A stretch of 64,000 nt of DNA from Pedosphaera sp. (GTDB taxonomy: Bacteria; Verrucomicrobiota; Verrucomicrobiia; Limisphaerales; SIBH01), in NCBI GenBank assembly GCA_031414955.1, contig JANOQV010000030.1:16296-80295 (forward strand). The letters are read 5' to 3'. The first letter of the stretch is position 1. Each line of letters starts with the position of its first letter. Shown here one piece after another: positions 957-49,837 of this stretch. Below the pieces are notes generated by a model. That model had not been told where the DNA came from. It saw nothing but the letters and a program-made list of their open reading frames with translations, and did not search any database. Position numbers and translations under genes: made by a program.

Positions 957-967
957 GCACGAATTTT

Positions 968-2386: not shown

Positions 2387-5300
2387 GCGCGACCCTCTCT
2401 CCCCTTGCCGTTATGAAGCGACTTAGCATCTTGTGGCTGGTGTTGTTCAGCGCCTTGGGAGTGTCGAAATCCTCGGGCGCGACCCCCGTGCCGCTCATCT
2501 TTGTGAACAACAATCCGGTCCAGCCGCCGGAACTGCCGCCGCAGATCGATGCCACGATTTTTTGGAATCGCGCCCTGTTCGTGGTTTCCAATGACTTCCT
2601 GTTTCCCGGCCTGTCCGTCCTGCCTTACTCGGGGAAGAGCGTGCGTTTTTGGACCAACAACAGCGTGATGCTCGGGTTGCCCGGCTTCGATTTCCAGTAT
2701 GTGCCCAATCGGGTTCATCTTACTCAGGCGCAGCGACTGCGCCGGGGTGCGAATCTGCCGCAGCCTTCCCGGCTGTTCTTCAATGACGGCCAGATCACGG
2801 TGTCCGATTACCTGTCCATTCGCGCGGTGAACATTGTCAATCCCGGCGCGCTTATCGGCGATCTGCGTGCCCGGGTCAACCTCACCACCACGAACGGGCT
2901 GGCCGACCTTTCACGCGGCGCGTTTCGTGTCGGAGAATTACCGCTCCCGGAATGTTCCACGGGGGGAGGATTTTTCTTCGATCCGCAGTTGCGCAACATT
3001 TACGCCAGCATCGGCACCAACGGTTCGGTGAACAGCAATCAGTTCTGGGCTCCCTTCACTTTGTCTTCTCTGGGTAACAGCTTCACGCCGATTGGTTCTG
3101 CCCCGCCACCCTTTCAGCGTATTCAGATCAACGCCATCTACCCCGGTGCCCCCGCGACCAACCGGAGCACGAACCTGATCTTTGGTCTCACGAACTGCGG
3201 TGATTACGGTTCTTTCGTCCACGTTGTGACCAACTTGACTACGGTCGGCTTAATCCAAGTTACCAACTTGAACGTGAACATGGTCTTCGTTCCGACGAAC
3301 GGATTCACCGAGGGCACGACCGTCGATGTGGGCTTCCCGTTCGGCGGCCTGGCGGCTCCCGTTGTGCAGTTTCGCACGCCGGATTTCGATGTCATCGGCC
3401 AGAAGTCGCTCACGAATTTTCTCAACTTCACGGACTCTGGCAATGGAGCCAGGATTTACCGGGGCCGCGACTGCTTCTTTGATACCTACCAGAAGTCCAA
3501 CACGCCCTACGCGCCCGGGCTGTTCCACGATTTCCGGTTTGAGACCAACCGGCTTTACACCTACTCGGCGTCCCTGAATCAGATCGGCAACACCAACTCG
3601 TTTTACCATACCAACCTGCTCTCCGCGCTGGTCTTCACGGAATTGGGCAAATCTCCGGCGGCGAGCGATCCGACCAATTACAACGGCCTGGTCCAGATCA
3701 AGGCACTCCGTCTAAACCTGGCCCAGGCGCGCATCCGCGGAGAAAATGCCGTGGACATTTACACCAGCAACCTGGTGGACATGACCGACTCGGCCATCGA
3801 CTCGCCCTTTATTAATTTCGATGTCAGCACGACTAACAATACCCTGGTGGTCTCCAACCTGTTCCGCCCGATCGTGAATCGTTTGCAAGCGACCTTGGAA
3901 TCGTGGACGGCGGTGTGGACGTCCAGCGTCACCAACGGATTATCCACCAACGTGGTCAATGGCACGAATGTTGTGACGCCCATCCTTGCCACTTGGAATT
4001 ATCGCGTGCTGGTGCTTGGAGCCTGCATCGCGACCGAGCAGCCGGCCATCATGCACAAATTTACGCTCCACGCGGACAACATGATCATCAGGGACAAGCT
4101 GGCGGTGAACAATGCGCTGCGTCTGGACGGGAAGACGCTGCACTTTGGGCCCGGTTCCGGCCTGTCGCTGCCTTTCAACACCAGCCTGGCTTTCACCAAC
4201 CTGATCGGCATCACCCGGCTGACCAACGAAGGAGTGCTCAACATTCCGCGGGCCGCGTTCTTCGGGTCGTTCGTGGATGGTTATGTGCAGCCTCCCAGGC
4301 GGAGGACGGGTCGCGCGCCCCGGCCGCGCCTCGTCACTTACGAGAGCCTGGTCAACCGCAACACGATTTCCGCCGCCAGCTTTTCGACCCGCGCGAACTA
4401 CGTGGAGATTGCCGGCCCTCAGTTCTTCCCCGCGCTGCTGGAGGCGAACAACGGTTTGATCGAGATCAACGGGGCCACGGTTGTGGTCAGCAACGCCGTG
4501 GTGCGGTCGCAGTCGGACATTCTAATTACCGCCGGCAATTTGCTCGCCACGAGTTCCACCTTGGTGGCCGGCACCAACGGCACGGTGGGCAATTACATTC
4601 CTGGTGCGCTGGTCATTGATGCCACGAACTCCATCACGGACGGTGGTCCCAACGCGGGCAACCGCTGGCTGGTCACGAGCGGGGCGCGGATTCTGCGTCG
4701 TCCGGCCAATGGTGGTGATCTGATGGGCACGCGCCTGGTTTCCAGGGCGAGCACCTTTGCCAAGTCCGTTATCAGTTGGGCCGGCTTGAACCTCGGCTCC
4801 AGTCCTTCCGGCTTCACCAATAATCTTGCGCTGGGCCGCCTGACCCTGGATGGCGCGGTGGGCACGAGCTTCCGTTTCAAGAGTGCCGGAACGGGTAACG
4901 CGATCTACATCGACTATCTGGAGATGATCAATTTCCCGACGAATTTCAGCCTCGCCAGCGTGCTGTCGGTGGATCCGGATTTCACCCTCTATTTTGCCGA
5001 CTCGAACATTCCAGCGGGCAACTTGACCAACAACTCAGGCGGACGCATCCGCTGGGTGAGCGACTTCGCCGGCCCGCAAAGCTCGACCAACATCACGTAT
5101 CCGAACGGCCTGACCTACACCTTCAACTCCGCTTTGGTGCGGAGCCGGGACTTGGATTCGGACGGAGACACCATTTTTAATGGCAATGATTGCACGCCGT
5201 TGGCCGTGCCCGGCTTTGACAGCACCCAGCCGTGCCCGCCCGCCCCGGATGTGGCCGGTGTTTCCGCGACGGCTTCGGCCGACCTTGGGTTGAGTATCTC

Positions 5301-5514
5301 GCTGGATGGATCGGGCCAACAAGTCGTGCTGGACTGGACTGCGCCGGCTGCCTCCGCGAACACGGTCGAGTTCAGCGACTCGGTGACGACGGATGCGTGG
5401 CAGACTTTGACGAATTTTATCAATGGTCCAGTGACAGCACGGGTGACGGTGAAGGATGCCGTAGGCGCTCCCCTGCGCGTTTACCGCGTCCGGGTGGACG
5501 CTGGCAAACCGTGA
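2383..5514 (+). CDS. Exported beta-rich hypothetical protein (1043 aa) with DxDxDG Ca-binding-like loop and shared C-terminal domain
   Basis: ATGA overlap with the upstream stop. Hydrophobic signal peptide (KRLSILWLVLFSALGV). DLDSDGDTIFNGND motif. C-terminus VVLDW...W...RVYRVRVDAGKP. Confidence 0.8.
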   Translation: MSATLSPLAVMKRLSILWLVLFSALGVSKSSGATPVPLIFVNNNPVQPPELPPQIDATIFWNRALFVVSNDFLFPGLSVLPYSGKSVRFWTNNSVMLGLPGFDFQYVPNRVHLTQAQRLRRGANLPQPSRLFFNDGQITVSDYLSIRAVNIVNPGALIGDLRARVNLTTTNGLADLSRGAFRVGELPLPECSTGGGFFFDPQLRNIYASIGTNGSVNSNQFWAPFTLSSLGNSFTPIGSAPPPFQRIQINAIYPGAPATNRSTNLIFGLTNCGDYGSFVHVVTNLTTVGLIQVTNLNVNMVFVPTNGFTEGTTVDVGFPFGGLAAPVVQFRTPDFDVIGQKSLTNFLNFTDSGNGARIYRGRDCFFDTYQKSNTPYAPGLFHDFRFETNRLYTYSASLNQIGNTNSFYHTNLLSALVFTELGKSPAASDPTNYNGLVQIKALRLNLAQARIRGENAVDIYTSNLVDMTDSAIDSPFINFDVSTTNNTLVVSNLFRPIVNRLQATLESWTAVWTSSVTNGLSTNVVNGTNVVTPILATWNYRVLVLGACIATEQPAIMHKFTLHADNMIIRDKLAVNNALRLDGKTLHFGPGSGLSLPFNTSLAFTNLIGITRLTNEGVLNIPRAAFFGSFVDGYVQPPRRRTGRAPRPRLVTYESLVNRNTISAASFSTRANYVEIAGPQFFPALLEANNGLIEINGATVVVSNAVVRSQSDILITAGNLLATSSTLVAGTNGTVGNYIPGALVIDATNSITDGGPNAGNRWLVTSGARILRRPANGGDLMGTRLVSRASTFAKSVISWAGLNLGSSPSGFTNNLALGRLTLDGAVGTSFRFKSAGTGNAIYIDYLEMINFPTNFSLASVLSVDPDFTLYFADSNIPAGNLTNNSGGRIRWVSDFAGPQSSTNITYPNGLTYTFNSALVRSRDLDSDGDTIFNGNDCTPLAVPGFDSTQPCPPAPDVAGVSATASADLGLSISLDGSGQQVVLDWTAPAASANTVEFSDSVTTDAWQTLTNFINGPVTARVTVKDAVGAPLRVYRVRVDAGKP

Positions 5515-5648
5515 TGGGGCGAGTCTTGTGCCGGCTCGCCGTCTCATCCCGTGCGCTGGCTTCGGTAGAGAAAAAGTGTCGCAGCCTGCTGGGTGAACTC
5601 GGGTTCACGCCGGTGGGAGCGTCACCAAACAGTTAAGCGCGCAATCAC

Positions 5649-14600: not shown

Positions 14601-17096
14601 ATCATTAACTCGGGCACGGAGCTGATCATCAATGTTGGCACGCTGCTGAACGGCGCGGGTCTGATGGGCGATGTGGTGGTGTTGAGCCGCTTTGGCGGCA
14701 CGATGACCAATACCATTGCGGCGCGCGCCGCCCAGCCGGACTTCTCGCCGGCCAACACGGCGACGGAGATTACCGAGGTGATTCCAGCCGCCGATCTGGC
14801 CGTGTTCATGAGCGACTCGCGCGATCCGGTCGGGCCGGGCGCGAACGTGATTTACACCGTCACGGTGGTGAACAACGGACCGAACCACGCGCACAACGTG
14901 ACCTTGTTCGATACGCTGCCGATCCCGTTCAACGTCGTCTCGTTCACGAATTCGCAGGGCACTAGTTACGATGCCGCCGGGGTGCTGGTCTTCGAGTTTG
15001 GCACCGTGAGCAACGGGGCCAGTGCCAGCGCCACCATCATCGTCCAGACCATCGCCACGGGCATTTACACCAACCTCGCCACGGCGGTGGCGCAGGAGGG
15101 CGATATTTCCCCGGCCAACAACACGGCGGTGGAATCGACCACGGTGCAGGGCGGTGGTGGCACGGTGACGGCCTCCGGCATCATCGACAATGGCACCATC
15201 CAGCTCGGGGTGAATCCGGCGGCCGACTTGAACGTGCGCAACGGGCCGCCTTCCTTGGGCGGGACCACTTCGGTGGGTCTGCGCTATCTGCCGACCGGGG
15301 CGGAGAGCACGGCGCCTGGTTGCTTGTGCGAGGGTTGGGGTGTGGCCAACGGCTTGAGCGGTGCGGCGGGCGGGGCCAACGAAGCCTCGGACGGTGGGGC
15401 CTTTGGTCTGGTGGTGGAAAGTTTCGTGGCCGACGGGGTGACGGCGCGCTCGGTAGTGCGGGTGCATGGTTCGAGTGTCTTTGGCGGGGTGGACACGGGT
15501 ACTCCGGCGACGTTCCGGGTGACGCACTACTATCATCCCTCGGCGGCGACGACCAACCTCTATCAGGTGGATGTGACGATTGAAAACATTTCGACCAACG
15601 TGGTGGAGGTGCTTTACCGCCGGGTCATGGACTGGGACATCGAGCCGACGCCTTTCAACGAGTATTCGACCATCATCAAGGGCGACTCGACGAATCTGGT
15701 CTTCACCAGCGATAATGGATTTGCCAGCGGGAATCCGCAGGTGGGGCCGAGCCAGATTTTAGCGGTGGGTACTTTCATCGACAGCGGCCCGGCGGATCAC
15801 GGCGCGCTGTTCGACTTTAACTTTGGCCAGTTGAATCCTGGCCAGAGCAAGTCGTTCGTCACTTACTACGGCGCCGCCGGGACGGAGCGTGATGCGGTGA
15901 CGGCGATTGCGCGGGTCGGCACGGAGGCTTACTCGTTCGGCCAGTCGAGCACGCCCGGGGGCAAGACCAATGGCACGCCCAACACCTTCATCTTTGGCTT
16001 TGGCGGTATCGGCGGGTCGGCGCTGGCCGGCTCGGATCTGGCGGTGGATGTGAGCACGCCGAGCGCGCTGGTCTCAGCGGGTTCCGTGTTCAACTATACG
16101 GTGGTGGTGACCAATCCCGGGCCGGACATCGCCACGGCGGTATTTCTTACCAACACTTTCCTCTCTCCAGCGGTGAATATCACTGCGGTCACGCCCAGCC
16201 AGGGCGTGCTCGCGCTCTCCAGCAACTCCCTGGTGCTCAACATTGGCGACATGCCGCCGCGCACCATCGTGACGCTCAACCTTTCTGTGATCGCCACCGC
16301 CGAGGGTTTCCTGACCAATCGCGCGGATGTGACCACGACGCAGATTGACTTCAACACCAGCAACAACACGGATGAAAACGTGGTGACGGTGGTTTCGCCG
16401 GGCACTTATGCCAATCCCAACCCGATCACCATTTATGACGCCGGTCCCGCGCTGCCTTATCCCTCGATCATCCGGGTCTCGAACGCGCCGCCGCGGGTGA
16501 CGGCGGTCACGGCCACTTTGCTCGATATCAACCATACTTATCCGGCTGATCTCGACGTGCTGCTGGTCGGGCCGCAAGGGCAGAAGGTGCTGCTGATGTC
16601 GGATGCGGGGGGCGGATATGATCTGAACGGGGTCACGCTCAAATTTGATGATGAGGCTGGTTTATTCTTGCCGGCGGCGGCGCAGATTGTGGCCGGGAGC
16701 TATAAGCCGAGCAATGTGGGCGGAGGAGATTTCTTCTTCAGCCCGGCGCCGCCTCCGCCGTATGCCGCGTTCATGTCCAGCTTCAATGGCACGGATCCGA
16801 ATGGTGACTGGTCGCTTTATATTCTGGACGATCAAGGTTCGGACGTGGGCCTGGTGGGCAGCGGATGGCGGATGAGTTTTGTGTTCAACGTGGCCCTGCG
16901 CATTGAGCGCCTCGGTTCCAGTGTCGTGCTTTCCTGGCCGTCCTCGGAGACGGGTTACACGTTGGAGAGCGCGCCGGCCCCGACGGGTCCTTGGGGCGTG
17001 GTGACGTCTGCTCCGCCGCTGGTCGGCGGGCGCTTCACGGTGATCGTGCCGGCGGGCGGGGCTAACCAGTTGTATTTCCGACTGCGGAAGCCGTAA
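5649..17096 (+). CDS. Giant exported multidomain zinc metalloprotease/adhesin (3815 aa): M11/M6-like metzincin, PKD, Calx-beta repeats, delta-60 propeller, two P-domains, DUF11 repeats, shared C-terminal domain
   Basis: N-terminal hydrophobic segment. HELGHNFNLPH at 6963-6995 followed by a Met-turn-like EYGNPRDVMG. PKD-like DADGDALAYNWDFGD. Many GTA..G.DY / I.DD...EG.E / TI.DDD Calx-beta motifs. AVQPDGKxxxGG.F repeats at ~11810-12860. HTFPSDVDVLLVGP P-domains. ADL.V...D..DPV DUF11 motifs. Confidence 0.85.
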   Translation: MKTFRWLAAGVFLALLIALVFWRTSGRDVVGSFSPIPSVSPALVSVAPALVAPADVSAPVASPVAPATVSGTNAPLVSFESWVRDFLVSDVSARPALAAQGAQLVSARQEEMAALIRTNPEEAIRRSLPYSVRKQLPPEIASQIEQPVSGRGSFRPLYYVPLPGRESEVPPTGYEVTMNGTDYETHAYGDRLHHPARDGAYLHGVSVKERAKTKPLLALSDEAHRLITDRGEARDLVSTGQLQADALCGVTKKPASSDQPVISQYGEHYYAFCEPAHAKQLNATLKRASAVSWALGGAGKVSGPNATNVQFEGFSRTQGRKKLLYIRVLFADDINPPQTDDQAQATVLANNRYFHEGSYGTVWWESTVTPLIRLPQRKNYYGENEGALLGDARNGAAALGYFPGDYFGPSYVLCTSMPQYLYGGISSGVLNGSPGAITHELGHNFNLPHANFWQPEGSLPGPVQPQNLSPWPIDPDALNGHNDINAPYIIGLGGAQPSQEYGNPRDVMGSGPGHFSAVAKRYMDWLPQDFVKTVTVSTTNRLYAFDTPRIDRGRLYAMQIRKDVTREYWLSYRQGFAANPWFSNGLEVEWNLGGENVDETFIMFGNELIDTTPDTSYGKEDAALIVGRTLSDPAASLHITPIARGGGPVSSDKWIDVVVMKGSFPGNQIPTMTLEASALTVAQGAIVDFTVIAQDADGDALAYNWDFGDWTFGTNGPVQSKTFNANGQYVVRCEVSDMKGGRASRQLVLTVGSPTTYTISGRVLDTEGNPVEGVRIHNNGVRPVNPPADPYAPYTNAPVDVGTYRYGYTDTDGFYVIGNVPDGTYVVRAFKYGYSTMPLDFTDPVNVNGNASGLNFTATKLARVSVAWTADATEPGDEYDPAEDGVFTITREGGEFSQDLPVVFTMSGRALYDFDYGLAGTDNLATNCVYETNGTVITTNCVVFTTPRGQLIIPAFQSSIDVHVIPTNNFLGDGAKSAVMTLILQTNFTRVTTVLTNFLVTNQPGNIVVTNSLFVQRTNQFRVPGWELRPFGPSGTPTWFQTDPTYVLDQAEATVNILDDDEPDPPTVSVFTLDFDAHEARGDSAMMAIVRQGAPLDQDLVVHYETPDVSAFYSPALNGEDVALLSGTITIPAGQSFALLPVVAINDLFVEGNEILFVNILESPEYFTGFADGMIVVDDDLPQVNIFTSVSTVARNGGSARVTLSRVGSVDEDLTVNYLVTGTAVSGVDFTTLSGSVVLPAGQLSVDVNINPIPTSTNPLPRTVTIVISDSTTYNIYQQNSATVTIIDQNLPTVTLARSGDTISENGGTSTFTVTRTGAITNNLNVFFDTGGSAWEGSDYASVGTNIIIPAGSITAGIVITAINDSAREFGDTWGDDTVIVRLRANTNYTLGGTVSQTIRIVDDEGDTALPSVGFMLQRSSVFENAGQARIFVKVTANPATNRPIEIEYRVTAGSATPNVNYVNSFPDRRDPTGQSVTGILNITHYFPPNPPPRFYDLENGIYTIPVTVLDDLVASGDKTVTITLFNPTGYQTNRSLVTNGGIIYTNFLITHLPTNAFLGPASSHTLTIQDLKTSTVTLAATAERTYEAGPVPGQFIFTRDGATNVPLTVYFALEGTAASGSDYVPVGTNITIPVGTNSVALTLMPIDDPTEEVAETMIIRLLPRSGYHSALGAGAGMIIVSDDGTIQFGAAEYNFSENAGFAVVPVVRTGGTNLAGTVDYLITGGTATNGVDYLGTNGTLSFLPGEDVKSIILPLVNESLVEPDETILLVLTNATGGVPLGGQRTTTVNIVNDDTAFDFAVAAFRANENAGLGTVIVTRTGVLTNTDTVWVTITNLIPPTVGIAGPLDFVPAAHLLTFNPGETNRPVSLTLLDDELFEGDENISLRLSQPSGSLQLGALSNAVLVIVDDECRLDFEVTGYSVKEYSNFVTLVVRRVGGTVNPVTALYTTGDGTATNGFDFAGVTNTVSFLGDQLVADTNGSGQVTFVPGESFRTINITILDDVIGEGNENFHISLSDPASPSPASLPGATLLGVNLTTEVTILDNETPGNVDYEFVAGPNATVNSVALAPDLKVAIGGEFTLLDGFSFNRIARLHADGARDAGFNPGAGANSNVHVVAVQPDGKVLAGGEFTTMDTSNRVRLARLNADGNVDSGFVVPTNGVNGIVRAIAVQTNGQIVIAGDFTQVSGVARSHIARLNANGTLDGSFSPSLSGNGLALAIQADGKIVVGGAFSAVNGLPQNNLARLNAGGSLDGAFLIGSGCNGAVNGLAVQANGRIVVAGAFTLVNGVNREYLVRLETGGNLDGTFLTGGGPNSAVSAVAVHGSGKILIAGDFISYDGRPANRFARLKSNGSFDPVFVTGTGANALVRSVVVQPDSAVIIGGEFTEVNGIARSYVARIHGDERSSIPTVDFGAANFTVDETAVSAVIPVVRSGSTNQAFVIQYWSTNGTATAGQDYTGVTNTLVFAAGQLTNSFAILIQDDLLIEGDETVNLSLTNVTPNVDVSGQSTAVLTILDNERFVQFSATNYVIREDSNTVAITLTRTGGLSGVITVLLTTSNGTALAGSDYFSFSNTVTFAAGQITATASIALVNDLVGEAAERFHLSLSTPTGGLLGTPASATVTILDDDINFGTFNYTNPNAIVILDAAPAAPYPSSISVSNLTGVVSRVVVSLVGFTHTFPSDVDVLLVGPQGQKTLLMSDSGGSGDVFGLNLRFEDSAASLLSDTALLVASTNHPTDYAPVDGFAAPAPAGPYATELAVFNGTVGNGTWSLYVVDDRGNDSGVISNGWRMTITTVDAASASDLGLTMTDAPDPVAAGDTLIYALFVTNRGPLGVTGVQLTNYLSPNVEFISAVALQGTCTNLNGVVACGLLDLPAGGSDYVWISVRPLVQGTVTNRAVVSANEPDVITTNNSATVITTVTPGTTADLRVTLTDAPDPVFAGQNVTYHFTVTNRGPITATGLLITNRFPENGSLVSASSTAGSIINSGTELIINVGTLLNGAGLMGDVVVLSRFGGTMTNTIAARAAQPDFSPANTATEITEVIPAADLAVFMSDSRDPVGPGANVIYTVTVVNNGPNHAHNVTLFDTLPIPFNVVSFTNSQGTSYDAAGVLVFEFGTVSNGASASATIIVQTIATGIYTNLATAVAQEGDISPANNTAVESTTVQGGGGTVTASGIIDNGTIQLGVNPAADLNVRNGPPSLGGTTSVGLRYLPTGAESTAPGCLCEGWGVANGLSGAAGGANEASDGGAFGLVVESFVADGVTARSVVRVHGSSVFGGVDTGTPATFRVTHYYHPSAATTNLYQVDVTIENISTNVVEVLYRRVMDWDIEPTPFNEYSTIIKGDSTNLVFTSDNGFASGNPQVGPSQILAVGTFIDSGPADHGALFDFNFGQLNPGQSKSFVTYYGAAGTERDAVTAIARVGTEAYSFGQSSTPGGKTNGTPNTFIFGFGGIGGSALAGSDLAVDVSTPSALVSAGSVFNYTVVVTNPGPDIATAVFLTNTFLSPAVNITAVTPSQGVLALSSNSLVLNIGDMPPRTIVTLNLSVIATAEGFLTNRADVTTTQIDFNTSNNTDENVVTVVSPGTYANPNPITIYDAGPALPYPSIIRVSNAPPRVTAVTATLLDINHTYPADLDVLLVGPQGQKVLLMSDAGGGYDLNGVTLKFDDEAGLFLPAAAQIVAGSYKPSNVGGGDFFFSPAPPPPYAAFMSSFNGTDPNGDWSLYILDDQGSDVGLVGSGWRMSFVFNVALRIERLGSSVVLSWPSSETGYTLESAPAPTGPWGVVTSAPPLVGGRFTVIVPAGGANQLYFRLRKP

Positions 17097-17196
17097 TCAA
17101 CTTGCGCCTAGAATTATCTGTGTGCGAGAACTTGCGCCCTCCGAACGAAGCGAACGGCGCGGAGCGGGAATTCCGGGCATTTTAGAGTTTTTGAGT

Positions 17197-25149: not shown

Positions 25150-25176
25150 CGGACAGCAGCAATTTTGCGAAGAACT

Positions 25177-37100: not shown

Positions 37101-39483
37101 TCGCAGCGGCTTCCTCGGCGGAACCTCGCTGGTGGACTGCGCCGTTGCTCCCGGCGGCACCGCCACCGCCGGAGTTGATTTCTTCGGGGCCAACACGCCC
37201 TTGACCTTCGCCGTGGGGCAGGCCCTCCAGCTTTTCCAGGTCACGCTGCTGGATGATTTCCTGGTCGAAGGGGATGAGACGATTTTCGTGAGCCTGAGCA
37301 ATCCTCTGGGCACTCTGATCGGAGCGCAGTCCAGCTCCGTCATTAACATCGTGGACAACGACACCACGGTCGGATTCTCCCAGACTAATTATGTGGTGAA
37401 CGAGAAGGTGACCAACGCCCTCATCACCATCGTGCGCAATGGCTCGCCGTTTCAGGCCATCTCCGTGCAGTTCCGCACCATCAACGGCAGCGCGAGCAAC
37501 GGACTGGATTACGTGTTCACTTCGAACAACTTGAGTTGGGCGGCCAACGACATTTCGCCGCGCCTCGTGGCGGTGCCGGTGCTTGATGATGCCCTGGCCG
37601 AGGGATCGGAATACGTTCAGCTCCAGTTGGTGAACCCGACCAATGCCCTGGCTGATCCGCTGACGGGCCTGGCCACGCTGACCATCGTGGATGATGCCGG
37701 TGCCATTGCCTTCGCCGCCACGTCCTTCAGCGTGATCGAGGGCGCGACGAACGCCTTGATCCAGCTCGTTCGCACCGGAGGCTCCAATGGCACGGTGAGC
37801 GTGGCCTGGACTGTGACTGGCGGCACGGCCACCGCCGGCTCGGATTACACCGGCACCACCGGCACGGTGGTCTTCGCCGCCGGCGAAACCACCAAGCAAA
37901 TCATCCTGCCCATCGCCGAAGATGCTCTCGTCGAAGGCATCGAGAACGTGATCCTGGCCCTGAGCAATGCCTCCAATGGCGCCCGCGTGGGCGGACCGTC
38001 GAGCGCGACCCTCTCCATTCTCGACAATGACACCGGCATCATCGTCGCGTCGGGCACGGCCCTGACCTTCGAGAGTTTGGTTCCGACCAACCGCGTGATC
38101 GAGCCGAACGAACGGGTCACGATTCAGTTCGGCCTGCGCAACGCCGGCCTGGTGGACGCCAACAATGTCTCGGCCACGATCGTTTACGCGAACGGCATCA
38201 CTCACACCAACGCCCAGACCCAAAGCTACGGCGCGCTGCTTGCGAGCGGCCACACCGTGGCCCGGCCCTTTAACTTCACCGCGCTGGGCACCAACGGCAC
38301 GCGCATCACGGCCACGCTGCTCCTCACGAACAATGGGGTGTTCCTCGGCCCGGTCTCCTTCGACTTTGTCCTTGGGAGCCAGAGTTTGAACTTCCAGAAC
38401 GCCAATGCCATCGCGCTGAACGTCCTCGGTTCGGCCACGCCTTACCCGGCCGGAATCACGGTGGCTGGCCTGGCCGGCCCGGTGAACCGTGTGACGGTGG
38501 CCCTGCACAACATCACTCATCCTTTCCCTGACGATCTCGACATCCTGCTGGTGGCTCCAAACGGCGCGCGGGTCATGCTCATGTCGGATGCCGGCGGCGG
38601 CAACGCCTTGAACAATGTCACGCTCACGTTTGATGACGCGGCTGCGCTGGCCATTCCGGACAACACCGCCATTTCCGCCGGCACTTATCGTCCGGGCAAC
38701 TATCTGATTCAGAACGATCCGTTCGCCGCGCCGGCTCCGGCTGCGCCTTACAGCAATACGCTCGCGGCCTTCAATGGGAGCGCCGCCAACGGTGTCTGGT
38801 CGCTCTACATCACGGATGATTCGGAGTTCTCGCTTGGGGCCATCGCCAACGGCTGGAGCTTGAACATTTCGACGGCGGACACGGTGGTCTCGGGCGCGGA
38901 TCTGGCCGTGGTGGTCACCGATGCGCCCGATCCAGCGACCACCGGCGGCCCGGTGACTTACACCATCGCGATCACGAATTACGGTCCGGCCACGGCCACT
39001 TCGGTGGTGCTGACGAACCTGCTGCCGTCGGCGGCGAGTCTCCCGATCGTGAGTGGGCCGGGCACGCACACGCTGAACGGCAACGTGCTCTCCAGTGTCT
39101 TGGGCAGTCTGGCCCTCGGGTCCGGCACGGTGGTAACCGTGACCATGACCGCTCCGGCGACGAACGCCTTGCTGACTTTTGATTCGACGGTGGCCTCGTC
39201 CGAGGTTGATCCCAATCCAGGCAACAACCACGTTTCGATCAAGACGACGGTGGGAGCCGCCCCGGATGTGCCGCCGTTATTTGTGGCGCGCAAGAACAGC
39301 CAGTTGGTGCTCAGTTGGCAGGATGCCTCGACCAATGTGGTGTTGAGAACCGCCGCGACCATTGGCGTGGCCGCTGACTGGTCGGGGGTGCCGAATGCCC
39401 CGGTGATCAGCAACGGCGTGAGCACCGTGACGATGCCCATGGACAGTGGGTTGAAGTTCTTCCGGTTGCAGCGAGTTCCTTAG
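25177..39483 (+). CDS. Giant exported adhesin-like protein (~4770 aa): N-terminal 'PxNDNF.NA' PPC-like domain, Calx-beta repeats, delta-60 propellers, P-domain, DUF11, shared C-terminal domain
   Basis: Signal peptide (KVFLLLIAFASSLVPRLAA-Q). PVNDNFTNA...GATAEPGEP..SVWYSW.AP..DT.GS.YDT.LAVYTG. Repeated Calx-beta and QPDGK propeller motifs. HPFPDDLDILLVAP P-domain. Ends LKFFRLQRVP. Confidence 0.85.
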   Translation: MKSIFERGSVNQRPGPIRGWACKVFLLLIAFASSLVPRLAAQQPVNDNFTNATVIAGFVGSALGITTGATAEPGEPNHWPTTLTGRSVWYSWVAPADGTVSIDTLGSAYDTILAVYTGSNVAALNLIANDDDSGFGLESQVIFFGVAGTTYNIAVDGYNYNDGLGPRNGPFRLNWASATNFVAAPTNEIQFAATNFTAAENAPGFAVIIVNYGGGAAGPVSIDYATADGTALVGTDYLRVTNTLTFQVGESNKSFTVPILDNAVQNSNKTVLLSLANPTGGAVLGALSNAVLTIQDDETLPVVSAAGVFNFSLPAYVVTENETFRAPFPGASINFPSRSPLGALVMVTRTGGASGRVLVDVGVGVAVGGVFPLTQTLAFDDQQMSATFVVDIPQVGAGIINLTLLNPRADPLEDPLTIIPTIGFPLSSIQILAVNTPTPASYSIERRTYRVDEYNPFDPFNFGLTNLLNFIDIDIINPSGLGGSVGIETRANVYGYLVQDGSDYPEAQNFIFPETPYTDGFAGITNFIDYIPFDITVNFPNGTTRRTIRLVVTNDATVEFNEDVQLRLHDPDNQHVLRNALANVTIMYDEQPAGQADREWNPEGVSFSQPPFNATPGANNTVSAVAVQADGRTVLVGDFTAVNSVSRFRVARMNVDGSLDLTFNPGSGADGFIEALVIYPPTLGTNGNKILIAGGFSAVNNVSRHGLARLNVNGSLDNSFFVGNGADGFVHTLTLQSDGKVLVSGDFTHWNDVAVPGLMRLNQDGSLDPSFNAGLAANNTIWSVAVRDTPQSIFVPRDAAGTQFEDVNVIETGSTAGTITITYDFYGIPDTIRVFYQGAMILDLTTNLAGSLTLAYGPGLATDFTIIMNQGIGLPGTAWEYKVSVLPVITARTIYLGGDFTEFNGLTRNGVVRLLDNGTVDPTFDPGLGVDGSVFAVAVQPDNKLLVGGAFHRFHTSERNSIVRLRNTGALDADYNVGTGFNDSVYCITLQPDNKALIGGLFQEFDGVRRMGLTRLFVGGSLDTSFMDTAYNQFSGLPRTFSFDPPRYVNSIALQADGNLMIGGSFTNLGGNYSIYRAIRNNYTVFTRADKTTRFNIARVLGGYTPGPGNTEFDPSAFPFTIDENGPIFYATMRRVDGRLGTAQVIATNSNVTANSPGDFFNQGVPQIWPEFAYAAPDSVGYVGVNYFAIPILEDTFQEGDETFHVGAVIPSGSITLGGEFVPLGAARGRFDASMVTIADNDFSPGEFNFNLSGYITNEGASFALITVIRTNGTAGGVSVDYLTRPGPVAAATTNADFSPVRGTLSFSSGQAVRTFQVPIVNDAVVEFDETITLVLTNATGGAKLPGGTPTSVATATLTIVDNDFLQGRLNFATSGFTNNENETVATIIVTRTGGNVGAMTVQVRTANGTATHPADYTGVTNTLSWADSDSSAKSFTIPLVLDGLVEGTETVNLFLYNPAINGALGARTNAVLGIADADNFGVLSLSQPFYEVDENGSAPVITVNRSGGIAGTATVNFATAVLTATPGVDYNNVSGTLTFLPGETSHNFVVPILDDLVPDGDKAILITLQNATNGSVGSLSNSVLTFIDNESFNLPAGSPDPSFHSVANDVVYALALQNDGRILMAGEFTLVNDVPRNRLARVKPSGVLDETFNIGPGANGSIRTLALQPDGKLLVGGLFTVINSTNRNHLARLGTDGSMDAFFNPGAGADNPVYALALQGDDKIVVGGSFATFNGFIRPGVVRLNTNGSVDLNFTPGTGVNGTVYALAVQSDGKILVGGDFTSFNGVARTNLIRLNLNGTLDNTFNPAFSINGVVSALLVQPDGKILLGGSFTNVNGTLRRGLARLLSGGGLDGSFLAGWSGADDAVFDLKQQVDGRLVVAGAFRTFNGVTRRGVTRLLADGATDPAINFGNGANAFVAALLIQPDRHIVFGGGFTEYDDQAHAHLVRIYGGSIAGSGALEFSAPLFTASESGSNAVITLRRRYGTFGEVRVEAFTQDGTAVAGTDYTGVTNTLIFPQGETRVQLVVPVTANAIPNDDRTVLLGLRNFLGADTGPQPVATLVIQDDDASLSFSGANYVVNENAVSGNATILLTRQGGTNQTLTVDVGTVAGGTATAGADYTPTTAPLSFGPGELSKLFTVPIANDTVLEGNETILLALSNPGAGVTLGLASAVLNVIDDELLNGQFLFQTNNFIGQEGEGVAQVVIVRTNGAVGIVSVRLTTSNLSALAGSDYVNTNILVTFDDGVTNKVVPIVLINNAVAEPDEAFLLTLSQPTGGATILQTNATVTIYDDEILPGFLGFQTNEFFVNETAGFATINVVRANSRRGVVSVDFSVSNGSATAGLDYTTNSGTLTFADGEDLKSFLIPIINDVEGEGNETVRLSLTNLQGTNTTLTLPTANLNIVDDDTALRFSSATYSAGETQGGTVITVLRGGIINTAATVDYLTVPGGTAAGGLDYTPVSGTLAWSAGDATPKTFLVPIIDNTSWQADRTVLLVLTNAVGLAVYVGTPSNAVLTIINDETQNPVAGPVDPTFNANFGAVGSVQSISYDSASRLYVGGDFSRFHGTAANRLVRLQTNGALDPTFNPGSGADQIVYSVTALTNGAYVAGAFTNVNGVPAGRVARLLANGSVDVTFLSTVGANGPVRAVALAAADQLVLGGEFLAYDGNPAARVARLNSNGTLDTSFIVGSGPNNTVRAVAVQPNGQVLIGGDFTSVSGFIVSHLARLNVDGSLDTTFDTGLGADGPVNALALQADGRILVGGEFVTINGVPRDRLARLNAGGSVDTSFIIGDGADDVVRAVALDLDGHVLVAGAFNTFNTHLLRGVARLNSDGSLDPAFNVGYGADAPVNALSVVNRALPPAVAVMNFNALIASNSTPYTTHTENFITFGSLVGGSFLAVSNGNLITGAELGSFSSPYEIRLAGGYSFTLQSITFSNLTAPVTITSSRGGTVAVVTSGPFFFDASFAGVSWVQLSAAGVAIVDDLVVLPGADAFASPSFALGGDFEKFNQIQRGGVVVLGSGGSATFDFDPRNIAARSVYASGIYTNSAQPGTLGKVVVGGDFTALVGVDRVNRLARLNIDGTLDSSFASGVGADGPVRALAIQPDGRTVFGGYFTTYDFLTRAYLARVNADGTLDNSFNFGAGLDNAVLALALQADGKVVVGGLFTTVYGVPRQSIARMNTNGTVDASFTVGAGADGAVRAVAVQADGKILIGGDFQTVNGLPRAHIARLNANGTVDGTFNPGLGADGPVNAIALTSTGGILIGGAFTNYHGAPAPRLVQLTSGGALDGSFNPGSGANDFVSSIVLQPNGLALVGGSFTTFNGQIRHRLVRLTTTGALDPTINFGAGANDLINTIALQNYDGKMVIGGRFTAVDGLTRVAVARLFGGTNAGGGAFQFSTLAYFVNEHGGSAVLTVHRTGGTLGAASVAFATGNGSATSPTDYTATIGTLNFAEAESVKQITVPIIDNSITNVDRTFIVTLSNPSPGSSLGSNTTASVIIQDNDSVIGFSAASYLVNENGLVARITVQRTGGAADAVAVEYATGTNGTATAGLDFTPAGGILVFPSGVRSQTFDVLITDDVFNEFHETVPLTLLNPAGPAVLGLAAATLTIVENDAGAGVITFGTNSYFASEEVGLAFVEVLRTNGHSGAVAVNFQTLTGSATPGIDFVVTNGSVSFGDGVTSAFLAVRLLDNVVQEGDETVPVRLFGPSGGATLGLNLANLTIVDNDAPGTFVFSSPLYTVSEAGAFVTVTILRTNGNQGAASVTLVTSGGTATPTADYAPVSNVLNFASGQSVGTVNIAILQDGLVEGTETVGLLLANAVGATNSLGTATIQIHDDEVAVGFSAATYDVTESTTNVTITLLRTGDTNSPFSALVNTSDGTAFAPGDYLGNSVLMSFAAGQTSRTFIVTVIDDTLAEGDEFVNLTLSNPSPGLSLGPVATARLNILDNDTVVQFSAPLYATNEATVVMLIPVIRSGFLGGTSLVDCAVAPGGTATAGVDFFGANTPLTFAVGQALQLFQVTLLDDFLVEGDETIFVSLSNPLGTLIGAQSSSVINIVDNDTTVGFSQTNYVVNEKVTNALITIVRNGSPFQAISVQFRTINGSASNGLDYVFTSNNLSWAANDISPRLVAVPVLDDALAEGSEYVQLQLVNPTNALADPLTGLATLTIVDDAGAIAFAATSFSVIEGATNALIQLVRTGGSNGTVSVAWTVTGGTATAGSDYTGTTGTVVFAAGETTKQIILPIAEDALVEGIENVILALSNASNGARVGGPSSATLSILDNDTGIIVASGTALTFESLVPTNRVIEPNERVTIQFGLRNAGLVDANNVSATIVYANGITHTNAQTQSYGALLASGHTVARPFNFTALGTNGTRITATLLLTNNGVFLGPVSFDFVLGSQSLNFQNANAIALNVLGSATPYPAGITVAGLAGPVNRVTVALHNITHPFPDDLDILLVAPNGARVMLMSDAGGGNALNNVTLTFDDAAALAIPDNTAISAGTYRPGNYLIQNDPFAAPAPAAPYSNTLAAFNGSAANGVWSLYITDDSEFSLGAIANGWSLNISTADTVVSGADLAVVVTDAPDPATTGGPVTYTIAITNYGPATATSVVLTNLLPSAASLPIVSGPGTHTLNGNVLSSVLGSLALGSGTVVTVTMTAPATNALLTFDSTVASSEVDPNPGNNHVSIKTTVGAAPDVPPLFVARKNSQLVLSWQDASTNVVLRTAATIGVAADWSGVPNAPVISNGVSTVTMPMDSGLKFFRLQRVP

Positions 39484-39588
39484 CGAATGGAATGAAGTTA
39501 GGTGGCGCGAAGAGCGCTTGAATTTATCGCCGGACGCAGGCGGGACGTTTCCGCCCGCGTTCGCGCGTTTTTTGGATGGTTAAGTGAT

Positions 39589-42500: not shown

Positions 42501-45500
42501 ATCCGGCGCGGCTTTGAACGGCACCTGGCGTCTGCGGATCGTGGACGGCTTCCCGCAGGATGCCGGGACGTTGCAGTGCTGGACCTTGGCGCTTTATCCC
42601 ACGCTCTGCACCAATGGCGGAGGCACCTGCGTTTCCGACGTGGCGCTGAACGCCACCGCCGCGCCCGACCCGGCTGTGGCGGGCTTTGATCTGACCTATC
42701 AACTTGCCGTGACCAACAGCCGCCCGATCCCGGCCTCCGCTGTGGTGCTCACCCATGTCCTTTCCTCGAACGCCACCTTCGTTTCCGCCCTCTCCAGCCA
42801 GGCGGCTTGTGCGTTCAACAACGGCACCGTGACATGCGTGTTCGGCACCTTGCCGGTTGGGGCCAATGCCAGTGCCACCATCGTGATCCGGCCGCTCGCC
42901 GTGGGCCTCATCAGCAGCGTCTTCTCCGCTGGCTCCTCCACGCCGGACTCCAACCTTTCCAACAATGTCGTCACGCTGAACTCGGTCGTAATCGGGCCGG
43001 CTCCGGCCTTTGCTGCCGCCGGCGCGCAGGTCGTCGCCGAGAGCATCGCGCCGCCAACCGGTGGCATTGAGGCCGGAGAGACGGTGTCCGTGAACCTGGG
43101 CCTGCGTAACGTCGGGCCGATTGCCTCGGGGAACCTCGTGGCCACTCTCATCGAGGGCAACGGAGTAATCGCTCCTGGTGCCGCCCAGAGTTACGGCGCG
43201 ATTGCTTCGGGCGGCGTGGGGACGCAGTTGTTTTCCTTCTCGGCTCCGGGCGCGCCCGGCACCTCCATCGACGCCGTGTTGCAACTTCAGGATGGGGTGC
43301 AAAACCTGGGTGTTGTTACCTTCCACTTCACCGTCGGTGGCGAGGTCACGTTCGAGAACAACGCCCCCATCGTGATCAACCAGTTTGGGGCCTCGACGCC
43401 GTATCCGTCCGTGATCAACGCCGGCGGCGTGGTCGGCTCGCTGGCCGGGGTGCGGGCCACGTTCACCAAGCTCACCCACAGCTTTCCCGATGACATCGAC
43501 GCTTTGCTGGTCAGCCCGCAGGGGCAGAGGCTACTGCTCATGTCAGACGCGGGAGGCAACGTCGCGATCACCAACCGTACGCTTACTTTCGACGATGCGG
43601 CGGCCGGCCCGTTGCCCAACGAGACGGGCCTGGTGGCGGGCAGCTTCCGTCCCTCAAATTTCGATTCCGGCACCGAGCCGGGCGGAGACATCTTTCCCGC
43701 GCCCGCGCCCGTCGGTTCACTCATCACTTCCCTGGCGGGCTTTGCCGGCAGCGATCCGAACGGGCCTTGGTCGCTGTTCATTCACGACGATGGCGGTGGG
43801 GATGCCGGCTCGGTTTCCGGTGGTTGGTCGCTGACTTTGAACACGGTTTATCCGGTCAATCCCTTGGCCGATCTCGCCGTGACGGCCGTGGCGGTTCCCG
43901 CTGCGCCCATCCTTGATGAGCCGCTCACCCTGATCCTGACTGTGACCAATCTTGGCCCTAGCAATGCGCCTTCCGTGGTCCTGACCGACGTTCTCCCGGC
44001 CGGCAGTTCCTTCGTGAACGGTTCCGCCAGCCAAGGCGGGGGAGTGAGTTTCGCTGCTGGAGTCGTGACGGCGAATCTTGGCTCGATGAACGTCGGCTCC
44101 AGCGCCACGGTCACGATTCAATTGACACCCACAGCCCTCGGCCTGGCCGTCAACAGCGCCACCGTCTCGGGTGCTTTGACTGATCTGGTGCCCGTCAACA
44201 ACACCGCTATCACGGCGCTCACGGTGGGCAGTCCCGTGGGTGATGTGTCGCTGTCGGTCGTCGCTTCGGCCCAGCCGGTGTTCCTCTCCAGCAATGTCGT
44301 CTTCACCGTGCTCATCACCAATCGCGGTCCGAACCACGCCGCCCATGTGCAGGCCGGCACTTTCATGGCCTCCGTGCTGAGCGTGGTCTCCGCTGTCACG
44401 ACGCAGGGTGGATGTGTTTTCGCCAGTGGCCAGGCGCTCTGCGACCTCGGCGATCTTCCGGCCAACGGCAGCGCGGTCGTGACCATTACCGCCGTGGCTT
44501 CGTCCATCGGTTCGGCCCCGGCCAATTTCGCCGTGAGTTCCGACCCGACCGACCCCGTGCCGGCCAACAACTCGACCAACCTGCTTTGCACGGTCATTCC
44601 GACCTCGCCGGTGATTGTTCCGGCTGGCTCCGCGCTGCTCAACGAAGCCCTTCCGGCCAACGGCTCCATTGAATCAGGCGAGACCGTGACCTTGAGCTTC
44701 GGCCTGCGTAACGTCGGCAACGCCGACGCCGCGGACCTCATCGCCACGCTCCTTCCAACCGGTGGCGTCACTGGCCCGGGCGGACCGTTCCATTTCGGTG
44801 CGCTGCTCGCGAACGGTCCCACCGTCTCGAAGCCTTACAGTTTCACCGCGGGCGGCGCTCCGGGCAGCGCGCTCACGGCCACATTCCAGTTGTCGGACAA
44901 CGGGCAAAGCCTCGGCACGGCGGTGTTCGCCTTTACCTTGAGCGCGAGTCGCTCCTTCACGAACAGCAACCTGATCATCATTCCCAACCAGGGACAGGCC
45001 ACGAATTATCCTTCAACGCTCAACGTCTCCGGCATTGCCGGCGCGGCCAGCCGGGTGACCGTGAATATCAAACAGTTGACTCACACCTTCCCCGAAGACA
45101 TCGACCTGCTCCTCGTTGGTCCCGCCGGGCAGAAAGTGCTGCTCATGTCCGACGCGGGCGCGGGCAATGCCGTCAGCGGCGTCAACCTGACTTTCGACGA
45201 CGCGGCCACGGCGCTGCCGTTTAGTTCTATTATTTCCAGTGGCACCTATCATGGGACGGATTATCCGCCTGGCGACACGTTCCCGGCTCCCGCTCCGGCT
45301 GGGCCTTACGGCACCAATCTCGCCGTGTTCAACGGGATCAATCCCAACGGCACCTGGTCGCTCTACATCTTTGATGACGCCGTCGGCGACGCGGGCCGTG
45401 TCGATGGTGGTTGGACCCTGAACATCCAGACCGCCGCTCCCATCGTCTCCGCTGCGGATGTCGCGGTGACGGCGATCGCCCCGACGGTCGTCGAATCTGG

Positions 45501-46014
45501 CACGCCTTTCAGCTACGTGCTGACGGTGGCAAATTTCGGACCGGCACCCGCCACTGGCGTCACTTTGAGTGATTCGTTGCCGGCGGGTTTCATCCTCAGT
45601 GGCGTCACGGTCAGTCAGGGCAGCTACAGCACTGGTCCTGGCACCATCACGGCAAACCTTGGAGCGCTCGCCCTTGGTGCCACCGCCACCGTCACCGTGA
45701 ATGGTGCCGCCGTCGGGCCGATCACTCTCGTGAATCTCGTCTCCGTCAGCGCGGTTCAGGCCGATCCCAATCCGGCCAACAATCTCCTCGCGCCGGCGAC
45801 GACGGTGAACGCGCTTGCCCTCACCATCCAGCGCAGCGATGGCAACGTAATCATCACCTGGCCGTTCCCGGCCCCGGGCTACGTCCTGCAATCCGCCGCC
45901 ACCATCGAGGGGCCGTTTACCAACTCGGGCCTTTCCGTCACGACGGTCAACGGTCGGAACCAGGTCGTCGCGCCCGCCACCGGATCGACCTACTACCGCC
46001 TCCAGAAACCGTAA
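39589..46014 (+). CDS. Exported M36 (fungalysin-type) metallopeptidase (~2140 aa) with FTP/PepSY-like propeptide, three P-domains, DUF11 repeats, shared C-terminal domain
   Basis: Signal peptide MKRTLVAVSALLAVSALA. Propeptide motifs WQQELNGLPVFE and LVDAETGEVL. GFTEAAGNFQ, NNANMFTPPDG..RMQMY, HEYMHGLSNR at 41113 and GMGEGWGD are M36 signatures. Ends TYYRLQKP. Confidence 0.9.
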   Translation: MKRTLVAVSALLAVSALAVLPPGRAPLPNLDRRASRAANLPNEVAPEQAVAVSALRSRVPGLKVTRSVVLGSPVFFSSTDALLTGPDAQGLGVLPATAQGIPSNDPHRAVKAFLNEHAGLIGYNASALTGARVSRDYVATHNGMRTVVWQQELNGLPVFEAITMGHITSQGELVNLYSHFLPDASTAAARGLKGRATVAAAAGAVQISVLTAMSVAAGNLGDVVAPGSLTSLGAAQGPALKQTFRGSGALNGDQYGELVWLPMNSGLARLCWQVIITSKARGEMFLLLVDAETGEVLLRRNLTSYITNSTYNVWTSDSPSPFSPGYPTPGNPAQPAVIARTLVTIPALNTNASPLGWIAETVNETLGNNVDAHTDHNDNNQADLPRPTGNPFHVFDFPIDLAKSPTNYSTGAVVQLFYWNNFVHDKLWEMGFTEAAGNFQTTNFGRGGLGNDAVQADAQDGGTLNDGFHVNNANMFTPPDGFPARMQMYLFDGTDPDRDGDFDAEIIIHEYMHGLSNRRVGGGIGISTLQAAGMGEGWGDFYGLSMLSESNDPINGEWAMGGYATLNFAGLNLTDNYYFGIRHFPYSTNLLKNPFTFKDIDPTQISPHAGIPRSPLYLPYTPFEADEVHHQGEVWCVTLFEMRANLIAKYGFAGNRVALQLVTDAMALCPPNPNFLQSRDAILQADVVNNTNANYAEIWKAFAKRGMGSSATSPNSTTTVGVHESFDFPGLAVTTVAVNDVFSGNGNGAIDFNECVEISVGLRNNSVTTARSVSGTLRTTTPGVTIAQSNAVYADLAPGASGLNLTPYRVYTDPTFVCGTPIQFALVASAITTTQSVTTNLFQLRSGFVSLNPTLINNSTPASIPDGSTNGVESLINVSGLAAAVGKITVSLHLTHTYASDLLLQLIGPDGTTVDLSQNQGGAGQNFGASCSPTTLRTTFDDNAPQALSSAVAPFIGTFRPDETLTAFAGKSGAALNGTWRLRIVDGFPQDAGTLQCWTLALYPTLCTNGGGTCVSDVALNATAAPDPAVAGFDLTYQLAVTNSRPIPASAVVLTHVLSSNATFVSALSSQAACAFNNGTVTCVFGTLPVGANASATIVIRPLAVGLISSVFSAGSSTPDSNLSNNVVTLNSVVIGPAPAFAAAGAQVVAESIAPPTGGIEAGETVSVNLGLRNVGPIASGNLVATLIEGNGVIAPGAAQSYGAIASGGVGTQLFSFSAPGAPGTSIDAVLQLQDGVQNLGVVTFHFTVGGEVTFENNAPIVINQFGASTPYPSVINAGGVVGSLAGVRATFTKLTHSFPDDIDALLVSPQGQRLLLMSDAGGNVAITNRTLTFDDAAAGPLPNETGLVAGSFRPSNFDSGTEPGGDIFPAPAPVGSLITSLAGFAGSDPNGPWSLFIHDDGGGDAGSVSGGWSLTLNTVYPVNPLADLAVTAVAVPAAPILDEPLTLILTVTNLGPSNAPSVVLTDVLPAGSSFVNGSASQGGGVSFAAGVVTANLGSMNVGSSATVTIQLTPTALGLAVNSATVSGALTDLVPVNNTAITALTVGSPVGDVSLSVVASAQPVFLSSNVVFTVLITNRGPNHAAHVQAGTFMASVLSVVSAVTTQGGCVFASGQALCDLGDLPANGSAVVTITAVASSIGSAPANFAVSSDPTDPVPANNSTNLLCTVIPTSPVIVPAGSALLNEALPANGSIESGETVTLSFGLRNVGNADAADLIATLLPTGGVTGPGGPFHFGALLANGPTVSKPYSFTAGGAPGSALTATFQLSDNGQSLGTAVFAFTLSASRSFTNSNLIIIPNQGQATNYPSTLNVSGIAGAASRVTVNIKQLTHTFPEDIDLLLVGPAGQKVLLMSDAGAGNAVSGVNLTFDDAATALPFSSIISSGTYHGTDYPPGDTFPAPAPAGPYGTNLAVFNGINPNGTWSLYIFDDAVGDAGRVDGGWTLNIQTAAPIVSAADVAVTAIAPTVVESGTPFSYVLTVANFGPAPATGVTLSDSLPAGFILSGVTVSQGSYSTGPGTITANLGALALGATATVTVNGAAVGPITLVNLVSVSAVQADPNPANNLLAPATTVNALALTIQRSDGNVIITWPFPAPGYVLQSAATIEGPFTNSGLSVTTVNGRNQVVAPATGSTYYRLQKP

Positions 46015-47018: not shown

Positions 47019-47053
47019 GCGGCCACCCTAAGCCAGGCCGGGCGTGATTGGAA
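47019..47053 (-). promoter_or_regulatory. Putative sigma70 promoter for a leaderless transcript
   Basis: Minus strand reads TTCCAA-17nt-TAGGGT-6nt-GTG. Confidence 0.4.
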
Positions 47054-47097
47054 CATCGAGATTTGGAGCTTCGTTGGAATTTGGAATTTGGTGTTTC
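47047..47097. repeat. Degenerate heptamer tandem array (TTGGAAT-like) between divergent genes
   Basis: ttggaac...tttggag cttcg ttggaat ttggaat ttggtgt. Confidence 0.6.
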
Positions 47098-47121
47098 CCG
47101 CGGGTCTGGCATCCTCCGGCC

Positions 47122-49326: not shown

Positions 49327-49376
49327 CCGTTCGCTCCACGGCCAGCATCGCCCAGGCCACGCCGTCGCGCCGCTTC

Positions 49377-49404: not shown

Positions 49405-49414
49405 CCGCCCTCGC

Positions 49415-49804: not shown

Positions 49805-49837
49805 CCACGGCCCGGAGTCCCACGATTAATCGCACTC

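Follow-up and report, generated by a model that had tools for sequence, protein, structure and literature searches.

An uncatalogued C-terminal module on exported proteins of Verrucomicrobiota and its co-occurrence with a GspD-type type II secretion system

The stretch of DNA analysed here, called the window below, comprises 64,000 nucleotides of contig JANOQV010000030.1 (positions 16,296 to 80,295 of the forward strand) in the assembly GCA_031414955.1 of Pedosphaera sp., a member of Verrucomicrobiota, and it carries a cluster of long genes for exported proteins. A first-pass annotation, made from the sequence alone, proposed that five of these proteins share a C-terminal domain of about 70 residues and that this domain, hereafter the module, is a sorting signal analogous to, but distinct from, that of Bacteroidota's type IX secretion system (T9SS). 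In fact all five stretches translate as quoted there, being the last 66-77 residues of five consecutive open reading frames (ORFs) on the + strand and running in frame up to the stop codon (Table 1), and four of the five proteins are mosaics of Calx-beta, delta-60, DUF11, P-domain, PKD and M36 peptidase domains. The accompanying remark that all seven cluster proteins end in proline is true in the sequence, but it is the weak part of the observation, since the two upstream genes have no module and only 2 of 12 relatives share the terminal proline of the 477-aa protein.

Table 1. Copies of the module in the window, the two genes upstream of them, and the secretin-domain matches of the same genome (coordinates are those of the window unless a contig is given)
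Feature	Coordinates	Strand	Gene or context
Terminal module	5281..5514	+	End of 1,043-aa protein (gene 2383-5514), without Pfam family
Terminal module	16890..17096	+	End of 3,815-aa PKD/Calx-beta/delta-60/DUF11/P-domain protein (gene 5649-17096)
Terminal module	24934..25149	+	End of 2,675-aa Calx-beta/delta-60 protein (gene 17122-25149)
Terminal module	39271..39483	+	End of 4,772-aa Calx-beta/delta-60/P-domain/DUF11 protein (gene 25165-39483)
Terminal module	45814..46014	+	End of 2,170-aa M36 metallopeptidase (gene 39502-46014)
3' part of exported repeat protein	30..956	+	Start upstream of the window; without module here
477-aa signal-peptide protein	953..2386	+	Without module, without Pfam family
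Weak possible N-terminal module copy	54691..54954	-	On di-haem cytochrome c peroxidase-family protein (ORF 53620-55035; Pfam CCP_MauG); E = 0.002, short of the 1e-3 threshold used for counts
Amuc_1098-type secretin operon			One gene upstream of the cluster
PilMNOPQ-type secretin operon			Own genome
gspE-L-M-D operon secretin			Own genome
Partial secretin domain	G000:C54:5037-8165		C-terminal end of 1,042-aa protein behind BlaI-like regulator gene

A profile of the five tails was run over 56,942 stop-to-stop frames of at least 60 aa from the same genome for three iterations, with matches accepted at any position and a cut-off of E <= 0.001. The five tails alone already found dozens more matches, nearly all of them C-terminal, and after three iterations 223 modules were counted in 222 ORFs, 221 of which carry a single copy. 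As many as 201 of the 223 copies finish within 10 residues of the stop codon, where uniform placement predicts 9.3, and the last residue is proline in 143 of these 201 proteins against 9% of other long ORFs. The members have a median pairwise identity of 21%, yet the tryptophan is conserved in 98% of them and the arginine of the R-F-[YF]-R motif in 90%. About nine of the 22 non-terminal copies stand directly after a signal peptide, two more are near the start and one is cut by the contig end, the remaining ones being tandem, internal or fragments. By a simple heuristic, not SignalP, a signal-peptide-like start was seen in 123 of 156 complete carriers of at least 300 aa and in 698 of 2,499 other ORFs. 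Random placement or cytoplasmic cargo, named beforehand as evidence against a sorting domain, was not what this count gave: the copies are terminal and mostly on signal-peptide proteins. The longest proteins are the richest in it (52 of the 64 ORFs of at least 2,000 aa bear the module and two others have visibly related tails), carrier genes make up 12.3% of the bases of the genome, and a membrane-helix-like hydrophobic window of 19 residues occurs in only 3 of the 201 tails. A TSP3-like Asp-rich motif, possibly a calcium-binding linker or a processing site, often stands immediately before the module, both in this genome and at loci L121-L150 of G081; 31 of the 48 motif-bearing ORFs end in the module. 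A 913-aa NHL-repeat-like protein encoded directly behind the PilMNOPQ-type secretin (G000:C146:70428-73169, or L043:5429-8170) stops just after such a motif, with no module downstream in any frame.

As regards the identity of the module, the five tails matched no family of Pfam or NCBIfam, and therefore no characterised non-sorting domain; at E <= 1 no sorting family, T9SS models included, was matched by any of 45-46 diverse members that were scanned one by one, and Pfam fn3 was matched by 0 of 45. By sequence no solved member was found, the weak profile matches being to FN3 and CBM32 chains of the PDB, and the look-alikes in the atlas are all unnamed Verrucomicrobiota clusters. We found no description of the domain in the literature covered, which excludes subscription journals and bioRxiv supplements. 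A structural model of the copy at 16878-17093 (predicted local distance difference test score, pLDDT, 85.8) shows five long strands plus short bridges, and that of a divergent copy (pLDDT 93.4) six strands. Their best fold matches are FN3-type and middling (8avc, Z 7.0 and root-mean-square deviation 2.6 over 71 residues; 2vtf, Z 6.8 and 2.6 over 70), with Pel3 (4u49) as one of many tied rows at Z 5.7; the T9SS C-terminal domain (CTD) was not among the best 50 rows of each of the three fold searches, with a shared fold still possible. On short FN3 chains the alignment ends 14-20 residues before the chain end, spanning 9-76 of 90 in 7jgu, 2-72 of 89 in 9y5y, 11-84 of 101 in 8oty and 10-79 of 96 in 3mpc. 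The module is thus predicted, from the models, to be a sandwich like that of fibronectin type III (FN3), with what we take to be strands A-B-C-C'-E-F without G, closing on the conserved R-F-[YF]-R strand. The alternating residue pattern suggests that the conserved Glu/Gln and Arg may point outward.

Beyond the own genome, a first profile (A1), for which no more than 19 candidates were scored in each genome, was applied to 300 other Verrucomicrobiota genomes, and a broader second one (A2, with nearly all candidates scored) was used beside it; the survey of the range further took in 151 Planctomycetota and two Acidobacteriota genomes, these being the phyla sampled. A1 matches 131 of the 300 genomes and 84 of 149 genera including the own one. 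A single genome of the 151 Planctomycetota has one match and the two Acidobacteriota genomes have none, and the module is near-confined to Verrucomicrobiota. A1 also matches 80,304 clusters at 50% identity, from which the best 150 were picked by summed score and are hence multi-copy by construction and no random sample; the last copy is terminal in 132 of the 149 of these with a scored copy, in arrays of up to about ten. Terminal placement was seen as well for 24 of 29 copies in 18 loci of other genomes and for 27 of 30 in genome G081. No scaffold or ligand gene recurs beside the module in the 18 carrier loci, where only sulfatases, one ABC-type cluster of two close kin and scattered pairs were seen.

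Among the cargo are proteases, glycoside hydrolases, esterases, oxidases and also PATR (passenger-repeat) proteins, and 4 of 5 complete PATR proteins end in the module, not in a barrel. Close homologues of the M36 metallopeptidase end in it in 94 of 120 cases despite their shuffled middles, several of the other 26 being variants or partial. Among 76 named M36 loci, 8 of which were dropped as open or short, the module ends 9 of the 10 labelled Verrucomicrobiota and 2 close matches with doubtful labels, against 0 of 27 of Planctomycetota type, 0 of 27 of Acidobacteriota and 0 of 2 unlabelled ones, which have tails of their own; the terminal slot is occupied by dockerin-like tails in Planctomycetota and by FG-GAP tails in Acidobacteriota. 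NCBIfam divides this enzyme into T9SS-, myxosortase- and rhombosortase-dependent forms. Planctomycetota M36 peptidases (L210, L212, L216, L219, L220, L223, L225, L228, L230, L231, L234, L235) share a Cys-containing terminal module of their own, about 130 residues long, which had no Pfam match in the one copy scanned and is a candidate second sorting domain.

Phylogenetic profiling of outer-membrane genes, proposed along with the domain, showed that it co-occurs with a GspD-type type II secretion system (T2SS). With a GspD profile built on the N0-N2 region, the scores of these 300 genomes were bimodal, and 163 of the genomes pass at E <= 1e-25. A1 and GspD are found together in 124 genomes, the module only in 7, GspD only in 39 and neither in 130. 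When genomes with at least three A1 matches are taken, 103 of 104 are GspD-positive, and the remaining one has a full gspF-M-D operon in which gspD is interrupted by an assembly gap. A2 gave single weak matches in 4 of the 130 double-negative genomes, and a third profile, for which three copies from Akkermansia served as seed, gave no match in 20 GspD-negative genomes outside Akkermansia. Several apparent exceptions were followed up: G092 does have a T2SS, and the two copies of G070 are one duplicated gene on a contig of 55% GC with insertion-sequence-like ORFs, against 39% at the chromosomal locus. The duplicated block of about 9 kb on this small contig (G070:C2; L119, L120) looks like foreign DNA or contamination. 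The weak matches of G115, G220 and G186 were rejected as non-terminal and resembling F5/8-type (CBM32) domains, the marginal ones of G118 and G292 were gone with the second profile, and those of G253 and G266 are partial and non-terminal. As for other markers, a single GspL-like query was rejected as too insensitive for profiling, and the presence of any secretin is uninformative (24 of 24 carriers against 24 of 27 non-carriers).

The own genome has gspE-L-M-D on contig C22 and gspF-K on contig C249, with GspD and GspE slightly under their NCBIfam cut-offs; the GspD of G089 is above. Operon order in 35 gspD loci is mostly (E)-F-G-H-I-J-K-L-M-D. The GspC family PF11356 was matched in none of 5 genomes, by a search that was positive in 3 of 14 controls, and a divergent GspC could be encoded by the unassigned ORFs that precede gspD in G081, G005 and G300. 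The verrucomicrobial T2SS operon is mostly without a recognisable gspC, its GspL resembles a PilM-PilN-type protein (loci L171-L190, L062-L098), and in family f4 a conserved gene of 185-290 aa follows gspD in 7 of 7 loci. A complex prediction of the module with GspD N0-N2 scored 0.00 in two runs, in which the controls were also unfolded, and carries no weight either way.

The secretin nearest to the cluster belongs to another system. Four secretin-domain matches were found in the own genome, and the order pilM-O-P-secretin-(exonuclease)-548 aa-477 aa-1,043 aa around the Amuc_1098-type one recurs at 11 of 12 loci of relatives, within the reach of each contig. The distribution of this system does not follow that of the module, and the adjacent operon was rejected as its general cognate machine: with four candidates scored per genome, an Amuc_1101-type gene was found in 264 of 300 genomes, including 48 of 48 in family f20 and 21 of 21 in f27, both module-free, and none was seen in 18 of the module-rich 104 (a manual count over the table), including 9 of 9 of family f25. 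The module itself is variably kept on the three proteins behind the operon. It is terminal in 8 of the 10 orthologues of the 1,043-aa protein whose 3' end is in view, is borne by the orthologue of the repeat protein (548 aa in full) in 6 of 11 relatives, and is found on one of 12 inspected homologues of the 477-aa protein; the last gene has homologues in 34 of 40 relatives by whole-genome search, although a scan of genome contigs gave no matches.

Some further observations were made on these genes. The block of Amuc_1098-type pilM-O-P-secretin, a stand-alone 5'-3' exonuclease and three uncharacterised exported proteins (L001:8274-15695 together with window 30-5514) is kept across many families of the order and lies between secretin and coaE, which adjoin in G300 and G081; the three exported proteins are candidate pilus-associated or cargo subunits. 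Some homologues of the 477-aa protein reach 700-1,260 aa, owing to an insertion in mid-protein. After the cluster, window 46036-64000 holds ordinary genes: coaE, glgB, hisI, trpE, sufE, tatD, a cytochrome c peroxidase, a PQQ-propeller protein, a TPR protein, a phosphoribosyltransferase and exbB/exbD. With regard to secretins in general, which were sorted on a tree made by a quick method with long branches flagged, no PilMNOPQ-type one was seen in G018, G021 and G171, each with only two secretins, and as machine of the module this type fits less well than the T2SS. The genomes G002, G006, G010, G013, G016, G203 and G197, from other classes of the phylum, have 11-16 secretin matches each, and the 0.9-Mb genome G090 (L084) has only a type III secretion secretin, with SctC above cut-off.

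The earlier picture of a distinct sorting domain of Verrucomicrobiota stands in so far as the module is an uncatalogued, phylum-typical beta-sandwich, terminal on signal-peptide proteins and distinct from the T9SS CTD; what probably has to be revised is that its cognate machinery is unknown, since the profiling points to the T2SS. New here are the association with the T2SS, the finding that the adjacent operon is not the general partner, and the copies in Akkermansia. We consider that the T2SS is probably the main route of the proteins bearing the module. That the module is itself the tag by which the T2SS exports them across the outer membrane is the reading we favour, at somewhat under an even chance. 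By this reading it would be a portable tag of about 70 residues on Sec-exported enzymes and giant adhesin-like proteins. The cargo would cross the inner membrane by Sec and then fold in the periplasm, where the module, with its conserved Trp, Glu/Gln and Arg and its free edge strand, would be offered to some part of the T2SS on that side. As the search turned up no GspC, possible receptors are the N-domains of GspD, GspL/M and the tip of the pseudopilus. GspC binds the N0 domain of GspD by adding a strand, and this is the sole basis for imagining a similar use of the free edge strand. We put it forward tentatively, and with more doubt than belief, that a T2SS lacking GspC picks hundreds of cargoes of up to 500 kDa via a transplantable FN3 tag whose missing seventh strand is supplied by the machine; such a T2SS would use an address label in the manner of the T9SS. 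In Pel3/PelI, part of the signal for secretion by the T2SS lies in the loops of an Fn3 domain (PMC7949064). Cargo with a GlyGly-CTERM or MYXO-CTERM signal depends on the T2SS (10.1101/2023.06.07.544157; compare PMC6219818); T2SS genes are recorded in Verrucomicrobiota genomes in PMC13274419 and PMC5148204, in the passages covered without mention of such a domain.

A number of points weigh against a T2SS tag. The most important is that the co-occurrence is equally expected for an anchor on proteins that the T2SS exports, and the tandem arrays, the N-terminal and internal copies and the gain or loss on orthologues (6 of 11) suit a binding module no less well. The T2SS signals known so far are composite ones, distributed along the cargo (PMC7949064). 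A2 gave 1-3 weak matches in 9 of the 39 genomes with GspD only, and the other 30 stay negative, so the machine does not need the module. The GspD cut-off was chosen after the bimodal scores had been seen; the genomes are related and their counts non-independent, and the GspD-negative set perhaps amounts to six or seven lineages, several of them with reduced genomes. The cluster of the window lies behind the Amuc_1098-type operon in 11 of 12 relatives, not behind gsp genes, and in view of this conserved order the proteins of the window may function together with the Amuc-type system. Moreover, no GspD-type secretin was found in any of 22 Akkermansia genomes, and the third profile gave 1-7 copies in 8 of the 22, three further matches being marginal or another domain. 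These copies, terminal in 11 of 12 inspected, are homologous to the module at a profile-profile probability of 94.6%, and G081, a GspD-positive relative of Akkermansia, has 97 copies by the same profile, of which G081 itself is partly the seed. The first two profiles nearly missed the Akkermansia copies, so divergent variants may hide in negative lineages from which no seed was taken. One Akkermansia copy sits on a GH18-BACON protein, presumably Amuc_2164. Amuc_2164 is listed as the GH18 of A. muciniphila in PMC12834350.

Surface anchors of several kinds, such as SLH, dockerin and choline-binding modules, are known elsewhere. The module could likewise be a non-covalent anchor or docking handle that binds a surface polymer, pilus or scaffold, its cargo leaving by the T2SS via other signals; we regard this as possible but rather unlikely. 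Such a handle would suit the tandem arrays whose last copy is still terminal, the copies at either chain end, their retention in Akkermansia without GspD, the dockerin-like and FG-GAP tails that fill the same M36 slot in the other two phyla and the gain and loss on orthologues, and it accounts indirectly for the co-occurrence with the T2SS. However, the multi-copy set was chosen by summed score, 221 of the 222 own-genome carriers have one copy, no scaffold or ligand gene recurs in the 18 loci, and the module is near-universal on complete giant exported proteins, as an obligatory tag would be. We hold it to be quite unlikely that the module is an export tag read by several secretin-family machines (T2SS or Amuc_1098-type), or by some factor or translocon that is shared. 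Each inspected carrier genome has one system or the other, Akkermansia having the Amuc-type only and f25 the GspD-type without the Amuc_1101-type gene; the lineages f8 and f11, without either system, are also without copies, and the conserved gene order that joins the cluster of the window to the Amuc-type operon fits as well. Against this stand the module-free families f20 and f27, in which the Amuc-type system is universal, and the low copy number of Akkermansia, which has kept that system alone (0-7 copies, down from 97 in G081).

A passive cap or spacer derived from FN3, with no part in sorting and passed between extracellular proteins by domain shuffling, would agree with the middling structural matches, all to common FN3/Ig folds, and with the internal copies. 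It is improbable in view of the terminal excess over uniform placement, the conservation of Trp and Arg at so low an identity, the phylum-wide presence on unrelated enzymes and the dependence on the T2SS distribution. Least probable of all, and hardly to be expected, is a divergent T9SS CTD with a hidden T9SS behind it. The two are alike in size, in terminal position, in their basic last strand and in the class of sandwich topology (the last from PMC11285876), but the module is predicted to have six strands, not seven, and none of its 45-46 scanned members matches a T9SS model at E <= 1. No match to SprA or TIGR04183 was found in the 95.9% complete genome, by searches whose controls were silent too and which did not include PorV, PorU and GldKLMN.

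How the T2SS chooses its cargo is a long-standing question, and it is still open because no common signal has been found. If the module is a tag, one unit of about 70 residues on some 200 proteins per genome would make this selection directly testable, and Akkermansia, a cultured host with few copies and no GspD system, offers a natural control. With either role, tag or anchor, the profile gives a prediction of the surface proteome in a phylum whose members are major polysaccharide degraders.

In comparison with known systems, the module has the same predicted strand order A-F and pattern as FN3 domains (PF00041 clan, including the Pel3/PelI Fn3 with its T2SS signal), but according to the models it would lack the G strand, it has no Pfam fn3 match and it is strongly end-restricted; the Pel3/PelI loops, moreover, make up just a portion of the composite signal of a single enzyme family. 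The GlyGly-CTERM/rhombosortase, MYXO-CTERM/myxosortase and PEP-CTERM/exosortase systems also place a C-terminal sorting tag on unrelated proteins, and the first two feed the T2SS; however, their signals consist of a short motif, a membrane helix and a basic tail and are cut by a membrane protease, whereas the module is a folded domain without membrane helix, for which no processing enzyme was identified. The Amuc_1098-1102 system (NF042912, NF045709) lies directly upstream of the cluster in kept order, with a distribution different from that of the module. With T2SS substrates the carriers share signal-peptide-like starts and a gsp system in the same genome, GspC being not detected in the 5 genomes searched. 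A close parallel is the type A CTD of the T9SS (Por_Secre_tail, PF18962 / TIGR04183, Bacteroidota), which is also a soluble beta-sandwich of 70-80 residues with a basic last strand, ends many unrelated Sec-exported proteins, hundreds per genome, and occupies the same M36 slot. That domain is a seven-stranded 3+4 sandwich with an essential motif in strand 7 (PMC11285876), so that the module, which is predicted from its models to stop at the equivalent of strand 6, would share the topology class and lack the strand with the signal; it is also found N-terminally and in tandem, and has no match to PF18962, TIGR04183 or TIGR04131. The module thus resembles the T9SS CTD in position and cargo, yet lies outside that family.

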